Shown here: piece after piece, positions 2,660 through 16,169 of the stretch
Numbering within the stretch: the stretch's first letter is position 1
Layout of the letters: each line of letters starts with the position of its first letter
IMG/VR virus record: IMGVR_UViG_2690316224_000007
DNA: 24,162 nt
Direction: 5' to 3' (one strand)
Source of the DNA: a virus
Lineage: Duplodnaviria; Heunggongvirae; Uroviricota; Caudoviricetes
Notes under the pieces: generated by a model
What the model was told of the DNA's origin: nothing
The model's input: only the letters and a program-made list of their open reading frames with translations
Databases searched by the model: none
Program-made: the position numbers and the translations under genes

Positions 2660-3110
2660 CCCACGTCACATCCTGGAATACATGCGACCAGTCGCCTTCG
2701 GAAGATGGCAGGCGGGGTTTTGGCTCCGGCAGGTGTTCTGCCTGCGGTGTGCCCTGACTGCTGCGCGTGATGCGAACGCGTTCCCGCAGGGGGAGCGTAA
2801 ACAGGAGATCGGCGCTGTCATCGTCATTGATAACGGCGGAAAATTTGATGTCCTGATTACGCTCAGGGTTGAGCAACAACTGTGGCTGATTTTCGGATAA
2901 CCACGCCAGCAGCGGCAGCGTGAGGTCGTCCAGCTCCCCGGCGTAATCCATGACAAACATCACCATCTGATAGCGGTAAACAAACGAGGGCGTTTCTCCG
3001 GTCGTTTCAATGTTGCCGCTCTCCACGAAAATGGTGAATTTTTCCGGGTTGGCCTGACACCATCGGCATGAACGGGTCATGGCTTCACGCAGGGAATCAG
3101 TTTTCAGCAT
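2643..3110 (-). CDS. R: Tail completion protein gpR
   Basis: 155-aa ORF, same length as P2 R, N-terminus MLKTDSLREAM, located after the lysis genes and before S. Confidence 0.8.
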   Translation of the reverse strand: MLKTDSLREAMTRSCRWCQANPEKFTIFVESGNIETTGETPSFVYRYQMVMFVMDYAGELDDLTLPLLAWLSENQPQLLLNPERNQDIKFSAVINDDDSADLLFTLPLRERVRITRSSQGTPQAEHLPEPKPRLPSSEGDWSHVFQDVTWGESDG

Positions 3111-8076: not shown

Positions 8077-9828
8077 ATGATTCAGGACGCTTTTGTGCGC
8101 CAGCGTGCGCGGCAACTTTACTGGCAGGGTTATCCGCCCGCAGAAATATCACGTCTGATGGGAATAAACCCGAACACGATTTATGCGTGGAAAAAACGCG
8201 ACCAGTGGGATGAAACGCCACCCGTGCAGCGTGTCACGCAGTCCATCGATGCGCGCCTCATCCAGCTTACTGAAAAACAGAATAAAACAGGTGGTGACTT
8301 CAAGGAAATAGACCTGCTGACCCGGCAGCTTAAAAAGCTGCATGATGGCCAGCCGGATGTGATGGCCGCAGGAAAGAAAGGCCGGGCGAAAAAACTCAAA
8401 AATCATTTCACGCCGGAACAGATTGCCGCACTGCGGGAAAAAATCATCAGCAGGCTGGAGTGGCATCAGCGGGGCTGGTTTGACTCCCTGACCCTTTGCA
8501 GGGAAGCCGGGATACGTAACAGGATGATCCTGAAATCCCGACAGATTGGGGCGACCTGGTATTTTGCACAGGAAGCACTGCTGATGGCGCTGCGTGACGA
8601 TGTGGCACAACCTTACCAGCGTAACCAGATTTTTTTGTCTGCGTCGCGTCGTCAGGCGTTCCAGTTTAAAAGCATTATTCAGAAGGCTGCGGCTGAAGTT
8701 GATGTGGAGCTGAAAGGGGGCGATAAAATCATCCTCTCCAACGGCGCAGAGCTGCATTTTCTTGGTACTTCTGCTGCGACGGCACAGTCCTACACGGGCA
8801 ATTTTTATTTTGATGAATTTTTCTGGGTCAGTCGCTTTGCTGAACTGCGCAAGGTGGCTGGCGCTATGGCAACCCTCAGCGGACTGCGGCGCACCTACTT
8901 CTCCACGCCATCCACCGAAACGCACGAGGCATACGCCTACTGGAATGGCGACCGCTGGAACGAGAAAAAGGCCACGCATAAACGCCAGCGTTTTTCTGTG
9001 GACTGGAAAACGCTGCATAACGGGCTTATCTGCCCTGACCGGACGTGGCGGCAAATTGTCACGCTGGAAGATGTGGTTAATCACGGCTGGAAACACACCG
9101 ATATTGACGAAATTCGTGATGAAAACACCGAAGACGAGTTCCGCAATCTCTATATGTGTGAGTTTGTCCGCGAAGGGGAATCGGCATTTAACCTGAATAT
9201 CCTGATTGGCTGCGGTGTTGACGGATACGACGACTGGAAAGACTGGAAACCTTTTGCTCCCCGCCCGATGGGGAATCGTCCGGTATGGATTGGGTATGAC
9301 GCAAACGGCAGCAGTGGAAACGGCGACAGCGGCGCTGTGTCCGTGGTGGTTCCTCCGGCTGTTCCTGGAGGCCGTTTTCGAACGGTGGAGACGCGACGCG
9401 TTCAGGGGCTGGAGTTTGAAGAACAGGCCAGAGTCATTGAAGAGTTCACGTGTCGCTACAACGTGGAACACATCGGCATTGATGTGACGGGCGGGAACGG
9501 GGAGGCTGTTTATCAGATAGTGAAACGGTTTTTCCCTGCTGCTATTCCGTACACCTTCACGCTGTCATCAAAACGGTCGCTGGTACTGAAAATGCTGCAA
9601 ATAATGCGTGCCGGGCGGTGGGAATATGATCGCGCCGAACGCGAGCTGGTCGCAGCCTTTAACGCCGTGCGTAAGGTGAAAACACCGGGCGGCTTTATCA
9701 CTTACGAAACGGACCGTGCGAGGGGGATCAGCCACGGCGACCTTGCGTGGGCAACCATGCTTGCTGTCATTAACGAACCGATTGGCGGCGAAGGGGAAAA
9801 CGAGCGTTTTACGGTTATGGAGTTCTGA
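8077..9828 (+). CDS. P: Terminase ATPase (large) subunit gpP
   Basis: 583-aa ORF, P2 P-sized, with a strong SD; stop overlaps the Q start (TGATG at 9826-9830). Confidence 0.9.
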   Translation: MIQDAFVRQRARQLYWQGYPPAEISRLMGINPNTIYAWKKRDQWDETPPVQRVTQSIDARLIQLTEKQNKTGGDFKEIDLLTRQLKKLHDGQPDVMAAGKKGRAKKLKNHFTPEQIAALREKIISRLEWHQRGWFDSLTLCREAGIRNRMILKSRQIGATWYFAQEALLMALRDDVAQPYQRNQIFLSASRRQAFQFKSIIQKAAAEVDVELKGGDKIILSNGAELHFLGTSAATAQSYTGNFYFDEFFWVSRFAELRKVAGAMATLSGLRRTYFSTPSTETHEAYAYWNGDRWNEKKATHKRQRFSVDWKTLHNGLICPDRTWRQIVTLEDVVNHGWKHTDIDEIRDENTEDEFRNLYMCEFVREGESAFNLNILIGCGVDGYDDWKDWKPFAPRPMGNRPVWIGYDANGSSGNGDSGAVSVVVPPAVPGGRFRTVETRRVQGLEFEEQARVIEEFTCRYNVEHIGIDVTGGNGEAVYQIVKRFFPAAIPYTFTLSSKRSLVLKMLQIMRAGRWEYDRAERELVAAFNAVRKVKTPGGFITYETDRARGISHGDLAWATMLAVINEPIGGEGENERFTVMEF

Positions 9829-10874
9829 TGAGCAGAAAAAATAAAAAAGTGCGCATGAGTTCACGCATTGATCTCGCTGATGCGCTCAGGAAAGAATCAT
9901 CGCTCAGTGCATTCACATTTGATGGTCCTTATCGCCTGACCGGGCATGACCTGCTGGACAATATGTACTGTGCTGATAACGGGCGGTGGTATGAAACCCC
10001 GGTGGACTGGTACAGTCTGGCAAGAGCCGCCCGGCAAACGTCCTGGCATCAGTCTGCGCTTTACTTTAAGCGTAATGTATTGCTCGGGTGCTACATCCCG
10101 CACCCGCTGCTTTCCCGGCAGGATTTCTCGGCGCTGGCGCTGGACTGGTTTGTGTTCGGTAACGCATTCCTTGAGCTTCGGAGCAATATGCTCGGCGAAC
10201 CGCTTAAATTACGGCACGCCCTGGCGAAATACATGCGACGCGGAAGCGATCTTGAATCATGGTGGTATGTGCAGGATGGCAAGGACGCGTTCCAGTTTCG
10301 CCCTGGCAAAGTGTGCCACCTGATGAATCCGGATATTAACCAGGAAATCTACGGCATGCCGGAATATCTTGGCGCATTACTCTCGGCCAGCCTTTCTCAT
10401 TCGGCGGACATGTTCAGAAAACTGTACTACGACAACGGATCCCACGCCGGGTGCATCATCTACATCGGTGCAGCGCAGGTAAACCGCGAAAGCATGGACT
10501 CCCTGAAAGAAACGTTACAGGGTGCGCGTGGTGGTGGTGCATTTAAAAACGTGCTCATTCATGCGCCCAACGGGGGCAAAGAAGGGGTGCAAATTTTGCC
10601 GTTCCAGCAGATCACCGCAAAGGATGAGTTCATGAATGTTAAGGCGGCATCCCGTGATGATGTGCTGGCTGCGCACCGCGTTCCGCCGCAACTGATGGGG
10701 GCGATGCCGGGCGAAAAAAGTGCGTTTGGTGATGTGGAGAAGGCCGCGCGGGTTTACGCAATTAACGAGCTGATGCCCGTCATGGAGGCCATGAAGCACA
10801 TCAATGACTGGCTTGGCGAAGAGGTGATCCGCTTTAACCCTTACGCACTGTTAGACACCCAGCCCACATCCTGA
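9828..10874 (+). CDS. Q: Portal protein gpQ
   Basis: 348-aa ORF translationally coupled to P; size and position as P2 Q; ends facing the expected cos region. Confidence 0.9.
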   Translation: MSRKNKKVRMSSRIDLADALRKESSLSAFTFDGPYRLTGHDLLDNMYCADNGRWYETPVDWYSLARAARQTSWHQSALYFKRNVLLGCYIPHPLLSRQDFSALALDWFVFGNAFLELRSNMLGEPLKLRHALAKYMRRGSDLESWWYVQDGKDAFQFRPGKVCHLMNPDINQEIYGMPEYLGALLSASLSHSADMFRKLYYDNGSHAGCIIYIGAAQVNRESMDSLKETLQGARGGGAFKNVLIHAPNGGKEGVQILPFQQITAKDEFMNVKAASRDDVLAAHRVPPQLMGAMPGEKSAFGDVEKAARVYAINELMPVMEAMKHINDWLGEEVIRFNPYALLDTQPTS

Positions 10875-11360: not shown

Positions 11361-11630
11361 TCAATTGTTGCTGTGTATTAATCGCCAACCACGAACATAT
11401 GCTTCATAGGCATCTCTGTGCCTTACAGTTCCAGCCTGGCTAAACGGAATGTTAGCTAAAACTAAATCATTCTGAGCCATAGCGCGTCCTTCAAGCGCAT
11501 CTTTTATGCCTAGCTCAAAAGCACAGGCAGCGCATTTGTGCCGACCTTCTTGTCCTTGATATTCAGGGAGAGACAGAAATGTTGGATTATAACGATGAGG
11601 GTTCTTGCAAATACCTGTTTTAGCCCGCAC
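11361..11630 (-). CDS. Hypothetical protein (89 aa, GTG start; contains C-x-x-C)
   Basis: ORF in the AT-richer islet with a GAGG SD 8 nt before a GTG start and a terminator immediately downstream. No recognisable homology; could instead begin at an internal ATG (39 aa). Confidence 0.35.
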   Translation of the reverse strand: MRAKTGICKNPHRYNPTFLSLPEYQGQEGRHKCAACAFELGIKDALEGRAMAQNDLVLANIPFSQAGTVRHRDAYEAYVRGWRLIHSNN

Positions 11631-11799: not shown

Positions 11800-11994
11800 C
11801 AATGCCGCGCAATTATCTTGTCGCTCACAATGCGAACGATCTTACAAAAAGGCACATTACTGTCAAGATAATTGATCGTTTTAATCGATAGATAATAGAC
11901 AATCTATTTGTTTAACAGATCGATTATTGAAGTAAGTGTGCCAGATGGAATGATACTGTCTCTATAAACGTGAGCATTTTTCGCGCAGATGCTT

Positions 11995-12306
11995 TTACTC
12001 AGGAAATAACGCCCGGATATTCCCAGCCATCTGGCTGGTTATCTTAGCCACTGGTGCAGACTGTGCTTCAAACTTTTTTGAGCTGATTTGTGTCACAGGT
12101 AATATCTCATCATCAGCCCATGCGGCCAGTCGGTAAGCCTCTGCCGGATTCGTCTTCAGAAGTGCCAGCCCGGCCAGAAAAGCCACGCGTTGGCCGCTTT
12201 TGCGGGCTTCTGGTGTAAGGCTGTCCAGCCAGGCGCATGCTTCTCCTTCGTTCTTGACGGCAGCTGGCTTCAGATAGAAACTTATTCTTCTGGTTGGTGT
12301 CGTCAT
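11995..12306 (-). CDS. parR: ParR/StbB-like centromere-binding protein (ribbon-helix-helix type)
   Basis: 103-aa ORF 4 nt downstream of parM, with an AAGGAG SD in the parM 3' end. Blocks RRISFYLKP, ACAWLDSL..E, RVAFLAGLAL and NIRALFPE align with plasmid R1 ParR as recalled. Confidence 0.65.
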   Translation of the reverse strand: MTTPTRRISFYLKPAAVKNEGEACAWLDSLTPEARKSGQRVAFLAGLALLKTNPAEAYRLAAWADDEILPVTQISSKKFEAQSAPVAKITSQMAGNIRALFPE

Positions 12307-12310
12307 TGGT

Positions 12311-13270
12311 TTACTCCTTGTTCATTGCGTACAGCCCATTAACCAGAGCAAATTGTGGCACCCCGTCCGCGATGAAAGTCGCATTAACTCCGCAGGCTTC
12401 GCGGATAGCGGGTGCCACAATCTCCGCCCCGCCACCGACAACCATCACCCGCCCGTAACCCGAAAAAACCGCCAGAGCGCGGATCACGCGTTGTTTCAGT
12501 GTTTCTTCCTTTTCACGAATAATCGCCATCAGGCTGGCGTAATGCGCGTCATTGTGGATGTGCTGGCGCAACCAGGCTTCATCATGGCGATGTTCGATAA
12601 TGGTATTGGCGATGTGGTGACTGGTGCGCATACCGTTAGTGGCCATCACCGACAGTACGGCATCGGCCATCAGAGAAACGCCTACGTGTGGATCGCAAAA
12701 CACCTGGCTGATACCTGCCAGTTGCCCCTGAACCTTTGCCACATCCAGCGTGGTTCCGCCCAAATCCACAATCAGCAGGGATTCAAACGGACTCATGTCA
12801 GCCAGTGCCTTAAAGCCAGCCGGAATGGATTCAGGCATAACCCGCACGTTACGGATAGTGAATGCTTCGCCGTTCTGGTACTCCACCGGGCGCATAACGT
12901 TCGCTTTTTTGCGGTTGATGTTGGCCATGTCCGGCTGTGCGTTTGTGTCGAAATACTCGCTCAGTGGCAGGGTGACAACCACATCCACCTCCCGTGGCGT
13001 GATGCCTGATTTGACCAGCGCGTGATGAATGGCAATGACATTCACATCGCTGTACTGGTATTGCGTGTCGGTCGTCTGGACAAAGCGATCGCTGACCGGA
13101 TCAAAACCATAGCGCACGCCATCAAGCATGTAGTTCGCGGGCTGCGTGCCACCGAACGGCGCAGACCATTCCGACTTGAAGCTGTTCGGGCTGATGGCGT
13201 TGCGGCGTTCGCCGTTCTCAGTCCATGCCAGCTTGATGTTGGTGGAGCCGTCGTCGATACAAATTCTCAT
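12311..13270 (-). CDS. parM: ParM/StbA actin-like segregation ATPase
   Basis: 319-aa ORF with a near-complete set of ParM blocks matching R1 ParM as recalled: IDDGSTNIKL, SPNSFK, YSDVNV, HHAL, TLPL, RKKAN, FTIRNVRVMPESIPAG, SLLIVDLGGTTLD, GVSL, LKQRV, FSGYGRVMVVGGGAE, LVNGLY. AGGAAAA SD before the ATG. Confidence 0.9.
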   Translation of the reverse strand: MRICIDDGSTNIKLAWTENGERRNAISPNSFKSEWSAPFGGTQPANYMLDGVRYGFDPVSDRFVQTTDTQYQYSDVNVIAIHHALVKSGITPREVDVVVTLPLSEYFDTNAQPDMANINRKKANVMRPVEYQNGEAFTIRNVRVMPESIPAGFKALADMSPFESLLIVDLGGTTLDVAKVQGQLAGISQVFCDPHVGVSLMADAVLSVMATNGMRTSHHIANTIIEHRHDEAWLRQHIHNDAHYASLMAIIREKEETLKQRVIRALAVFSGYGRVMVVGGGAEIVAPAIREACGVNATFIADGVPQFALVNGLYAMNKE

Positions 13271-13301
13271 CTCGATTTTCCTTATGTTGATTAATTAATC
13301 G

Positions 13302-13415
13302 TTTACGGGATTTTTAAATCCCGTTTTCGCCTGTTTTGTGCGCGCTTCATATATCGCGGCGCGTTTTTTGCTCATTTACGGGATTTGTGAATCCCGTTTC
13401 TGTCTGTTTTTTGTT
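13302..13415. repeat. Two ~39-bp direct repeats, each with a palindrome (ACGGGATTTTTAAATCCCGT / ACGGGATTTGTGAATCCCGT), spanning the A stop codon and the parM upstream region
   Basis: Repeat 1 at 13302..13340, repeat 2 at 13377..13415, 75 bp apart; each has CCCGTTTy and CTGTTTT sub-motifs. A TTAATTAAT -10-like element lies between repeat 1 and the parM SD. Confidence 0.5.
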
Positions 13416-16169
13416 TCCACTGGTCAGGCTACCCCGCAGCAGGTCTGCTTTGCGGCGGGCGCGTTCAGTGGTTTCACTGATTCTCTGTGCGTGCTCTGCG
13501 TCACGAATGGCGCGCAGCATGTCAGAAAGCACGGTAACGGGGGTTTTCATGGTGTTCTGGTCCTGCTGAAGTGTGGATGCCAGGCGTGCGGCGGCTTCGG
13601 GGTCTGATGTCCCCAGCTGTTCCAGATAGCTGGCGACCGGGTTATGGCGGATCTCCGTACTGCTTACGCCGTGGTTACGGCTCAGGCGCTGCCAGAGCTG
13701 CGTGATCCGGCTGTCCGGTCGGGTATCCGGTTTGCGTACAATTTCAAATCCCTGCGGTGCAATGTTGCTGCCGTCAACGTACAGACTGCCGCCCCGTAAC
13801 AGGTGCTGCATCTGCTGTTCACCGATATGCAGGCCGAGAGATTCAGCAGACTCCCGCCATTCTTTAGCGAGTAGTTCGTGGTTATCAGGCAAAGGCCGCT
13901 GCTGTTTGCGGCTCTGTGTCCAGCTCTGCATTTCATCACGGCTGTTTTTTGCCTGTTTGTCACGAAGCGAACGCATCAGCGCCCGGCGTTCGTGCCGTTT
14001 CAGTGAGCGCATCCATTCGTTCACTTCAACGCCGTCAGGGAGCTGCGGCCACGGTGCTGGCCGTTCTTCCGGCTGTTCTGTCCCGTTGTTGTCCGTTTCC
14101 TGTACACGGGGACAGTTATTGCCACGAGTCCAAGGGGCGGCAGGGCCGCCCTGAAGGTCAAAACCATTTTCGCGGGCGCTGTCTTCCGCTTCCGGTTTGC
14201 GTCTTACCAGCTTCCAGTTATCCGGATGCGTGCATACGCGGGAAGACTCCCCAATGAGCGGCGACCAGATCCCGTAAATCTGTACACTCTGCTCGCCGTA
14301 ATCGTTCAGCTCATCTGCGAGGTCGTAGGCTGTGCGAATCAGGTAGTCCTTGCGCGGAACAAGTACGCCCCCCTGTTTTTCAATGTAGGTGGCAAAACAT
14401 CCGGCATCAGCGGCAGCGAGTACCGCATCCATTGCGTCATCCTTCAGCCGTTGCGGGCCTTCCGGGTTGCGTGCCATCTGGCTGGCAAGGCGGCGGAGTT
14501 CACGCCACACCTGACGGGAGGGGATGCCAAAGAACTGGAACTGGCGGACCCGGTGAAGGCGCGCCCAGCCGATGGCACGCTCCACGCTCTCGGCCATTGA
14601 TTTACCTGTTTCGTGGTCAACGCGTGGCTTGCCCGTTTTCGGGTCGATGCCATCCACGGCACGGCTGTCCAGGTTTTTCCCGATGTAGGTGGCGATGTAG
14701 CTGGTCGGTGTGCCTTTTGAGCCGTCGACGTACTCCGCTTTAAAACGCGGAGTTATGTCATCGCCCAGCTCGTGACGATCTTCCTGAATGGCAATATCGC
14801 GGGTGTGGGACACAATGGTGTCGATTTCTTCCGGATGAGCAAAGACCATCATATGCCAGTGCACGGTGCCGTCATGGTGAGGCTCCACCGTGCGGATGCC
14901 ATACCAGCGCAGGCCGTCGCGGTTCAGTTTCTTGCGGACCGCCGCAAAAAACGAGTTAACCAGGTAATCGCTGGAGTCGCGCATAGTGGCCCCGTTCCAT
15001 TTGGGATTCGGATGACCGTTCTCCGTTGTTGCGTGGTATTTTGACGGGCAGGTGACAGTCAGAAACACCGCTCTGTCGCCACGGGCTTCGGCCAGAAGTT
15101 CCAGCCCCTTCATGGTGGCCATCATTTCTGCCTTACGGTGAACCGGGTTACTTACTCCCGCGTAATACACCGTCTCGAGATCAATCGTGAACCCGTCTTC
15201 ATTTTCCAGCATGAAACTTTTCAGGAAATCGCGTGTTTTCTCGCGCTGTGCGCGAAACTCGCTTAACGCATCCTGGCTCAGATAGGGCGATGTTTTTCTG
15301 GAAACCAGACAGGCGGCGCGGAGTTGTTCTTCTCTCCACTCGCAACGTAACAGCCACAGTTTGCGTTTCCACCATTCCGCACAGGTCAGGCGAAGGACTG
15401 CGCCCGGCAGCAGCTCCGTGTCCGGTTCGTTCCTCCGGTCTTTATCTGTTGTCAGTGCGTCATAATGTGGAGGCATGATGTGCAGGTGTAACGCCATGCG
15501 GGCCAGCATCTGATACGTCTTCAGCGTTACATCCATGGTCAGTTCGCCATCGGTCGCGCCAAAGCCATCGCAGAGTTTTTCGAAGGTGCTGCTGAACATC
15601 GCCGCCGTCATGGTGGCCAGCGTCTGTATCTGGTGTTTGTTGAGCTGCGGCAGGTAAAGCAAATCGTCCAGGCGTTCGCGTCCGGCAAGGGAGCGATAAC
15701 CCGGTGTCAGCCAGCGTCCGTCAGTGCGATCCAGACGTTCGAATATTTTGCGCAGGGTTCCGCGTGCATAGCGTTCCGCCTGCCAGCTCTTTTTGCCTTT
15801 CCGGCGATCGACTTCCTGTTTTTTGCGCAGGAAGGAGAGGTGGCGAATAAGCGGATCGCGCAGATAGGACGGCAGCAGGCGCAGCGAGGCCATGGCTTCA
15901 TCCACCGTGCCGCGTGCCTGTCTTCTGGCGTCTCCTGCCAGCGTGATGGTTTTGTCCTGTTTTTCCTGTGCGTCCAGGCTTTTATTAATCAGGTTGCCCA
16001 GTGGCGTGGCAGAGAACGCCGCATCAGCCTTTTCCTGTCGGTGCTCGTTCTCTGCCTGGTAGGCATCCAGCCAGGAGGAAAGCGCAGATTCAGGTGCGGG
16101 GATCCCCGTTCCTTCACGCCCCACTGCGTGGCGCGGTTGTTGCCAGTCCCTGATGTACTCTGTCGTCAT
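13347..16169 (-). CDS. A: Replication initiation endonuclease gpA (rolling-circle HUH initiator), 940 aa
   Basis: HUH motif seen as VEPHHDGTVHWHMMVF and the two-tyrosine catalytic motif as TSYIATYIGKN (Y-x3-Y). Position downstream of the small early genes matches P2 A; about 180 aa longer than P2 A at the C-terminus. Confidence 0.88.
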   Translation of the reverse strand: MTTEYIRDWQQPRHAVGREGTGIPAPESALSSWLDAYQAENEHRQEKADAAFSATPLGNLINKSLDAQEKQDKTITLAGDARRQARGTVDEAMASLRLLPSYLRDPLIRHLSFLRKKQEVDRRKGKKSWQAERYARGTLRKIFERLDRTDGRWLTPGYRSLAGRERLDDLLYLPQLNKHQIQTLATMTAAMFSSTFEKLCDGFGATDGELTMDVTLKTYQMLARMALHLHIMPPHYDALTTDKDRRNEPDTELLPGAVLRLTCAEWWKRKLWLLRCEWREEQLRAACLVSRKTSPYLSQDALSEFRAQREKTRDFLKSFMLENEDGFTIDLETVYYAGVSNPVHRKAEMMATMKGLELLAEARGDRAVFLTVTCPSKYHATTENGHPNPKWNGATMRDSSDYLVNSFFAAVRKKLNRDGLRWYGIRTVEPHHDGTVHWHMMVFAHPEEIDTIVSHTRDIAIQEDRHELGDDITPRFKAEYVDGSKGTPTSYIATYIGKNLDSRAVDGIDPKTGKPRVDHETGKSMAESVERAIGWARLHRVRQFQFFGIPSRQVWRELRRLASQMARNPEGPQRLKDDAMDAVLAAADAGCFATYIEKQGGVLVPRKDYLIRTAYDLADELNDYGEQSVQIYGIWSPLIGESSRVCTHPDNWKLVRRKPEAEDSARENGFDLQGGPAAPWTRGNNCPRVQETDNNGTEQPEERPAPWPQLPDGVEVNEWMRSLKRHERRALMRSLRDKQAKNSRDEMQSWTQSRKQQRPLPDNHELLAKEWRESAESLGLHIGEQQMQHLLRGGSLYVDGSNIAPQGFEIVRKPDTRPDSRITQLWQRLSRNHGVSSTEIRHNPVASYLEQLGTSDPEAAARLASTLQQDQNTMKTPVTVLSDMLRAIRDAEHAQRISETTERARRKADLLRGSLTSGNKKQTETGFTNPVNEQKTRRDI

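Follow-up and report, generated by a model that had tools for sequence, protein, structure and literature searches.

The DNA analyzed here, referred to as the window (24,162 nucleotides), is a P2-like prophage in reverse orientation, of the P88-like type (Xuanwuvirus). On its minus strand, gpA, parM, and parR follow each other in that order in the cargo hotspot between gpA and gpQ (Table 1). Over this region, the DNA is 94-97 % identical to that of Escherichia phage P88 and other Xuanwuvirus members (Peduoviridae), in which gpA, parM, and parR carry the same annotation. ParM is an actin-like ATPase, as in type II (ParMRC) partition systems; it matches the structure of R1 ParM (1MWK) with an E value of 1e-92 and is 47 % identical to ParM of R100. 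The small ribbon-helix-helix protein ParR is encoded directly downstream, its gene beginning 5 nt past the end of parM. It has the N-terminal strand TRRISFYLKP and ends in the tail NIRALFPE. A profile of the ParR family (10 relatives) matched the pB171 ParR structure 2JD3 (E = 7e-12); the single ParR sequence gave no match to a solved structure in the PDB. The N-terminus is 34 % identical to that of R100 ParR over 56 aa. At the C-terminus, N-x3-LFP was invariant in 10 of 10 aligned ParRs, the C-terminal halves of which otherwise diverge; R100 ParR ends differently. Judging from the systems reviewed in PMC5016525, this tail would be the contact with ParM. NCBIfam offered nothing useful for ParR or A.

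Table 1 Features of the parMR region of the window and of neighboring genes
Feature	Position	Strand	Remarks
Terminase	8077-9828	+	
Portal	9828-10874	+	
parR	11995-12306	-	Ribbon-helix-helix centromere-binding adaptor, 103 aa; Pfam PF10784, 7.8e-24
parM	12311-13270	-	Actin-like segregation ATPase, 319 aa; Pfam StbA_N, 1.7e-81; ParM C-terminal domain, 1.7e-68
Shine-Dalgarno AAGGA of parM	13279-13283	-	Surrounding CATAAGGA is also present in the R100/R1 parM leader
AT-rich ATTAATTAATCAA (sense strand)	13287-13299	-	Candidate -10 of a parMR promoter; TTAATCAA within it is conserved at the same place in Hafnia and Plesiomonas
Proximal block (putative parC)	13299-13340	-	42-nt direct repeat within the A-parM intergenic region
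Proximal palindrome	13305-13324	.	ACGGGATTT-N2-AAATCCCGT = ACGGGATTTTTAAATCCCGT; 9-bp arms, 2-nt center; putative ParR site and operator
Spacer between blocks	13341-13371	-	Contains the A stop codon; poorly constrained
Distal block (putative parC)	13372-13413	-	Direct repeat of 42 nt that takes up the final codons of A; CAAAAAACAGACAGAAACGGGATTCACAAATCCCGTAAATGA on the sense strand; homology with locus L066 begins here
Distal palindrome	13378-13397	.	ACGGGATT-N4-AATCCCGT = ACGGGATTTGTGAATCCCGT; 8-bp arms, 4-nt center; conserved core CGGGA-N8-TCCCG; putative ParR dimer-of-dimers site
Replication gene A	13347-16169	-	gpA replication endonuclease, 940 aa; Pfam Phage_GPA, 1e-130; stop codon 13347-13349

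At least three ParR alleles (~97 %, 83 %, and 55 % identical; loci L002, L003, and L004) occur alongside near-identical ParM and parC sequences. They differ mostly in the C-terminal half of the protein (window 11995-12110, the 3' third of parR), and all retain the final N-x3-LFPE tail. An 89-aa ORF between parR and the portal gene (11361-11630, minus strand) had as its sole match PHROG 3941, of unknown function, and none in Pfam or NCBIfam; the PADLOC defense models matched neither this ORF nor ParM or ParR.

A repeat search recovered two direct repeats of 42 nt each, 83 % identical and 73 bp apart from start to start, both with a 20-nt palindrome. The palindrome-bearing direct repeats that the preliminary description had placed at 13302-13415 are thus real, and only their dimensions, given there as ~39 bp and 75 bp apart, had to be corrected. 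Its gene positions also hold: the intergenic stretch between A and parM measures 76 bp (13271-13346) and houses the proximal repeat, and the distal repeat falls in the last ~22 codons of A. Gene A is a neighbor of the repeat element and not a part of it, its last codons merely running into the distal block. ATTAATTAAT, at 13290-13299, adjoins the proximal repeat, and the two blocks end 29 nt short of the parM ATG. In one natural variant, the spacer contains ATAAAACAT in place of GCGATATAT. The search for the palindrome elsewhere in the element, which had been put forward as a check, yielded these two places only: ACGGGATT-N4-AATCCCGT, with at most three mismatches, occurs exactly twice in the 24-kb window. 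In shuffled sequences, the mean was 0.13 and none of 100 reached two; the pair is far above chance expectation. The repeat search found no other repeat family upstream of or within the parMR module. AAAY motifs recur ~10.7 bp apart inside each block, and the half-site cores are ~11 bp apart; a lag analysis did not reveal a clear periodicity. The repeats of type II loci are expected to be tandem iterons of 10-11 bp, each bound by one ParR dimer. Strong conservation is limited to the central core pair of each block, and the additional phased AAAY motifs are no more than suggestive.

The parC of type II systems is an array of repeats, either continuous or split in two, that directly precedes the operon (PMC5016525); this definition was adopted here. 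In the window, two blocks 73 bp apart lie directly upstream of parM. As the sites stand in the same relation to parMR in different backbones, and as ParM and ParR are genuine and in the canonical order, the repeats are read as parC. The two 42-nt blocks would, with a probability of roughly 0.8, form the split parC of a type II ParMRC module, as in R1, which is carried as prophage cargo between gpA and the portal gene. They probably also serve as the operator of parMR. The sequences show the anatomy of the blocks, their linkage to parMR instead of A, their conservation as DNA and not as a peptide or hairpin, and their co-variation with the ParR strand. Of the earlier proposals that the repeats could be parC and the ParR operator, or an element recognized by gpA, or both, with replication and partition coupled, the first has gained comparative support, the blocks being located upstream of a genuine parM-parR pair, traveling with this pair, being kept in distant cassettes, and co-varying with the strand of ParR; recognition by gpA and the coupling have not.

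The distant cassettes are found in P2-like prophages with parM-parR in the corresponding position, either immediately behind A or separated from it by one additional ORF. Their ParM proteins are 62 % (Plesiomonas, L089), 61 % (Hafnia, L090), 58 % (Serratia, L092), and 53 % (Enterobacter, L094) identical to that of the window. A YGGG-N10-CCCR pair has been kept in Plesiomonas (CGGGACAACAAAAACCCG and CGGGACAACACTAACCCA, spaced 72 bp) and in Hafnia (TGGGATTGAGGAAACCCA and CGGGTTCATTAAATCCCA, spaced 73 bp). The distance from the proximal site to the parM ATG is 60 nt in Plesiomonas, 56 nt in Hafnia, and 53 nt in the window. These two lineages have retained neither the inner ATT/AAT arms nor the location with respect to the upstream stop codon. 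Among simulated sequences (300 per locus), a pair of sites spaced 70-76 bp was never seen for the two 9-kb loci and once for the 24-kb window. ParM-based searches for distant relatives in viral contigs, in genome contigs, and, with a five-lineage alignment, again in viral contigs returned almost only near-identical P88-like loci, and a search with the ParR N-terminus gave only close Escherichia-type alleles with at least 59 % identity.

The type of site changes with the type of ParR. In the alignment of ten ParRs, the N-terminal strand TRR[IV]SFYL is present in exactly the three lineages with GGG/CCC sites. The ParRs of Serratia, Enterobacter, and the IncL/M plasmids have the strand NRK[IC]SFY, and their upstream regions carry AGAAAAAT-type repeats instead, arranged as a 14-19-nt inverted pair in the Serratia and Enterobacter phages and as direct 11-mers in IncL/M. 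ParR of R100/R1 also has an RR strand (KRRTIAFKL), and the iterons in the R100 record are A-rich 11-mers ending in CCC. The direction of this co-variation, which involves few independent lineages (three with the motif plus R1), fits ParR as the reader of the sites. It also bears on the possibility that the palindromes are operators of another DNA-binding protein, a phage regulator or a host factor controlling parMR, with the real centromere elsewhere or diffuse. Palindromes of 20 bp are typical operators of many dimeric regulators, and a strong tandem array of iterons, as in R1, is not apparent. Such a regulator is nevertheless improbable: the sites move as a unit with parMR across phage backbones, parMR encodes only one DNA-binding protein, and the type of site tracks the β-strand type of this very protein. 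Moreover, the 24-kb window has no further copy of the palindrome, and there is no other repeat family upstream of or within the module.

Variation within the P88 family was assessed in 88 loci comprising 73 upstream haplotypes, and site spacing and arms were scored in 85 loci. Over the 73 haplotypes, the CGGGA and TCCCG cores are nearly invariant, with a minor-allele frequency of ~0.008 (0.047 for the proximal TCCCG), and the 8-nt centers of the palindromes are the most variable positions of the region (0.07-0.10). The blocks are spaced 73 bp in 84 of the 85 loci and 72 bp in the remaining one. In 38 of the 85, a T-to-C change has turned the left arm of the distal site into GGGAC, and the right arm does not compensate for it. 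Variable centers between nearly invariant cores are, on this sequence variation, the mark of a site that a dimeric protein contacts in two halves, roughly one turn of the helix from each other, and not of an RNA or DNA hairpin under selection. The loss of the inner stem in Plesiomonas and Hafnia likewise indicates a protein site.

A role as RNA hairpins, be it as a terminator or attenuator between A and parM, as an mRNA-stabilizing or processing element, or as antisense terminators on the plus strand, is accordingly quite improbable. The capacity to fold does exist, each palindrome giving an 8-bp hairpin of about -10 to -13.6 kcal/mol (z-scores of -1.8 to -4.6), and on the plus strand T-rich tracts follow, the distal copy even passing a terminator scan. 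The plus strand, however, is the antisense strand of A as well as of parM. On their sense strand, the hairpins are followed by AAAC or AAAT without a U-run, and no minus-strand terminator was called; an intrinsic terminator would combine a GC-rich stem with a subsequent U-run on the strand that is transcribed, and the terminator-like call is confined to the distal copy on the plus strand. Nor is the stem maintained in relatives, as would be expected of a terminator: in Plesiomonas, pairing is limited to CGGG with CCCG (or CCCA) over a 10-nt loop, the inner arms are also lost in Hafnia, and the uncompensated GGGAC arm is present in the 38 distal sites mentioned above. Compensatory substitutions were not seen.

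Comparison of cassettes indicates that the repeats are inherited with parMR and not with A, and that the DNA, and not the tail peptide of A, is the conserved entity. In L066, an IMG/VR locus, the gene in front of parM is a 155-aa ORF unrelated to the A tail; similarity to the window starts at GAAAAACAGAC, with which the distal block begins, and runs through both blocks into parM. Conversely, the 3' end of A in a prophage of E. coli M1/5 is 96 % identical to that of the window (13447-14000) and that in strain 2196 is 94 % identical (13441-14000); these prophages have other cargo and no parMR, their A genes end on their own stop codons, and neither the repeats nor the palindromes are present. 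An A-run at 13407-13412 (a T-run on the plus strand), the length of which shifts the frame of the last codons of A, is A6 in 79 loci, A7 in two, and A5 in two. In phage Chuche, the distal block is read in another frame, and A ends at a TGA 25 nt upstream of the usual stop codon, with loss of the tail peptide. The overlap of the repeats with A is apparently a consequence of where the cargo module joins: the upstream reading frame would simply run into the module until it meets a stop codon.

Together, L066, the M1/5 and 2196 prophages, and the frame shifts in the A-run speak strongly against the idea that gpA recognizes the repeats and also against a reading of the repeats as a duplicated peptide or small ORF. 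In P2 and 186, gene A houses the replication origin. This and the position of the distal repeat inside the A reading frame favor regarding the repeats as an origin or accessory site for the initiator gpA, the overlap with A coupling replication to partition, as the preliminary description had suggested. That suggestion is now very unlikely to be correct. An origin of the P2/186 type would be expected to be co-inherited with the A gene, but M1/5 and 2196 share this A 3' end and lack the repeats, L066 has the same repeats behind its unrelated ORF, and in Hafnia both sites are in or over a separate 167-aa ORF and not in A. Furthermore, the distal repeat is read in different A frames, the A-run variants being tolerated, and the position of the sites is fixed relative to parM and not to A. 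The notion that the repeat is duplicated coding sequence is just as unlikely: both copies, in the same relative frame, do give KQ..TGF.NPVN[DE], one as the tail of A and the other as part of a possible 26-aa ORF (MSKKRAAIYEARTKQAKTGFKNPVND) starting inside the distal repeat, and L066 retains the same tail, KQTKTGFTNPVNEQKTRSDI, on a different protein, but the common peptide follows automatically from the common DNA palindrome, the variants in A-run length read the distal copy in another frame (with the tail peptide lost in Chuche), no Shine-Dalgarno sequence precedes the ATG of the 26-aa ORF, and the sites of Plesiomonas and Hafnia encode unrelated residues.

Some further observations concern the slot between A and its downstream neighbors. 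The possibility that A reached its 940 aa by fusing to an ORF downstream of it was considered and dropped, since A of L066 aligns to residues 89-859 of A of the window, which points to a mosaic A 3' region instead of a simple fusion. The 155-aa ORF of L066 (2457-2924), which is flanked by parM and by a gpA of reduced length, contains CxxC...CCxC motifs (CRQCGREL...HICCRCRG) and takes its last 20 residues from the distal parC block; the unrelated 167-aa ORF of Hafnia occupies the same slot. The C-terminal tail of gpA is variable through homopolymer frame shifts and apparently dispensable. In the gpA-gpQ slot, the M1/5 prophage (L098) carries an AAA ATPase and an S8 peptidase, and the 2196 prophage (L099) three hypothetical proteins. 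Both represent cargo swapping at the P2 hotspot, with the junction ~30 nt upstream of the start of the parC module.

Among the closest known systems is the split parC of plasmids R1/R100 (Dam and Gerdes 1994, as cited in PMC5016525), in which repeats, parM, and parR have the same order and the centromere is likewise split into two blocks just upstream of parM. In addition to the identities of ParM (47 %) and the ParR N-terminus (34 %), the two systems have in common the RR-containing strand of ParR, A-rich sequences ending in CCC (the iterons of R1/R100 and the right half-site, AAATCCC, of the window), and the CATAAGGA ribosome-binding region. They differ in that R1 has 2 × 5 direct 11-bp iterons around a clear promoter (R100 record; PMC5016525), whereas the window lacks a consensus promoter between the blocks and each ~42-nt block contains one strong inverted pair (CGGGA-N8-TCCCG) with at most degenerate flanking iterons. 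That two strong sites are visible here as opposed to ten iterons in R1 counts against the parC reading. The distal block of the window is, furthermore, inside an upstream coding region, and its carrier is an integrated P2-like prophage, R1 being a plasmid.

The IncL/M plasmids (pKPC-2fe2, NZ_CP026210) possess the closest plasmid parM at the DNA level (~66 % identity). Upstream of it, two repeat clusters 73 bp apart are located around a good promoter. These clusters consist of direct GTATTTTTCT-type 11-mers flanking a TTTACA...TAATAAT promoter, and ParR has the RK strand and is 25 % identical overall. No experimental characterization of the IncL/M parMR repeats was found in the literature. The srpMRC system of the SXT/R391 integrative and conjugative elements (ICEs) is also a type II module on an element that is normally chromosomal and transiently circular (Carraro et al. 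2015, PMC4489591). SrpR has no recognizable similarity to ParR proteins (PMC4489591), whereas ParR of the window is clearly of the PF10784/R1 type; the repeat sequences and the carriers (ICE versus phage) differ as well, and srpMRC is experimentally supported, the system of the window being known from sequence alone. AlpAC/alpS of the Corynebacterium glutamicum prophage CGP3 (PMC5539076) similarly combines a prophage-encoded actin-like filament protein with a DNA-binding adaptor and specific DNA sites, and is reported to act in transport and replication of phage DNA. The actin-like protein and the adaptor are of different families, and hosts and phage types differ; by analogy, a role in phage DNA transport or replication is plausible for the module of the window.

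A mechanism covering ParR binding and its stoichiometry, looping, autoregulation, and the form of the DNA that is partitioned may be proposed by homology to R1 and pB171 (PMC5016525). Ribbon-helix-helix dimers of ParR would bind each palindrome as a dimer of dimers, contacting CGGGA and TCCCG, the centers of which are about one helical turn apart. The flanking AAAY A-tract motifs, with their phase of ~10.7 bp and some four turns per 42-nt block, could provide weaker, iteron-like contacts. The 73 bp between the blocks correspond to approximately seven helical turns, which would place both on the same side of the DNA, so that ParR could join them in a single complex from which the spacer loops out, in the manner of the split R1 parC. 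The clustered C-terminal tails of ParR (N-x3-LFP) would then capture the ends of ParM-ATP filaments, and these filaments would push sister circles of phage DNA away from each other. ParR on the proximal block, which covers a weak -35-like element and is situated just upstream of the conserved TTAATCAA, might also repress parMR or act as a roadblock to read-through from A.

As to expression, a consensus promoter scan of 11800-13800 found none at or between the blocks and only one promoter, at 11866. By eye, the proximal site can be seen to coincide with a weak TTTAAA-17-ATTAAT, with the -35-like TTTAAA at the center of the proximal palindrome. With no consensus σ70 promoter between or beside the blocks, the operator role is a weak one. 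A terminator scan found no sense-strand terminator between A and parM, and read-through from A into parM is therefore possible. Repression of a weak parMR promoter by ParR through the proximal block is plausible; a ParR roadblock to early-operon read-through from A could equally be at work. A spacer promoter at GATATAT was dropped as a candidate, this patch being replaced in natural variants.

Of 5426 complete E. coli genomes, 1373 contain the junction of parM, parC, and A (window 13100-14000), in up to three copies each. All except two of its 1535 places in E. coli (1533) are chromosomal. With almost all copies integrated, a plasmid centromere has no obvious job there, which counts against the parC reading, although srpMRC and AlpAC provide precedents for partition modules on normally integrated elements. 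Also against it counts an exact 73-bp deletion in locus L021 (IMG/VR UViG_2657245439_000011, about 2900-3000), which has fused the blocks into one hybrid repeat, as expected from recombination between direct repeats; the existence of this single hybrid block means that two blocks are not strictly required for prophage persistence. A circular sequence of 34,461 bp filed as an E. coli plasmid (NZ_CP148288.1, L180) comprises the whole genome of a P88-like phage, including integrase, parMR, and gpA, and might represent an episomal form, an excised form, or an assembly by-product.

About a fourth of the P2-like phages have been reported to carry a putative plasmid partitioning system at the gpA-gpQ hotspot, and it was suggested that this system might let the prophages be maintained as plasmids (Rousset et al. 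2022, PMC9122126). No partition system is mentioned in the paper on the P88 genome, and searches of the literature on P88, Xuanwuvirus, or Peduoviridae in combination with ParM yielded no description or test of the centromere. Similarly, searches for binding, stabilization, or incompatibility experiments on a P88-type parMR system found none. What is new here is thus the centromere, the presence of a partition system in P2-like phages having been noted before. It does not represent a new kind of system, and its position upstream of parM is where parC is expected.

A broader and decidedly tentative proposal is that an entire lineage of P2-like phages applies a ParMRC spindle of the R1 type to the circular phage genome, the centromere being a minimal parC of two palindromic sites that extends into the coding region upstream. 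This lineage would span the P88-like prophages, found in about a quarter of the complete E. coli genomes, and their relatives in Hafnia, Plesiomonas, Serratia, and Enterobacter. If the proposal is true, the spindle could serve episomal carriage or the active positioning and segregation of excised or replicating circles, and ParR at parC could, in addition, control read-through into parMR from the early operon for replication. With the putative centromere narrowed down to two short palindromic blocks (~115 bp), the idea of plasmid-like prophages becomes directly testable. Natural controls exist in the one-block deletion variant, L021, which is a ready-made one-block parC allele, and in the prophages with the same A gene and other cargo. 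The repeats also offer a compact, sequence-defined example of ParR specificity (RR versus RK strand) tracking centromere sequence.

The upstream regions of the parMR genes in the Serratia (L092, 3880-3980) and Enterobacter (L094, 2880-2960) phages and in L181, all with an RK-type ParR, contain an inverted repeat, GGGAAC.ATATAGAAAAAT ... ATTTTTCT.TTTCGTTCCC, with ~26-28 bp between its halves, and a CCGTTTAAACGG palindrome. This architecture is presumably a second type of parC in P2-like phages. The cargo next to parMR in the same hotspot also differs, a HicA/HicB toxin-antitoxin pair being located there in Serratia (L092, 5450-6084) and a KAP-family NTPase in Enterobacter (L094, 4411-5757).
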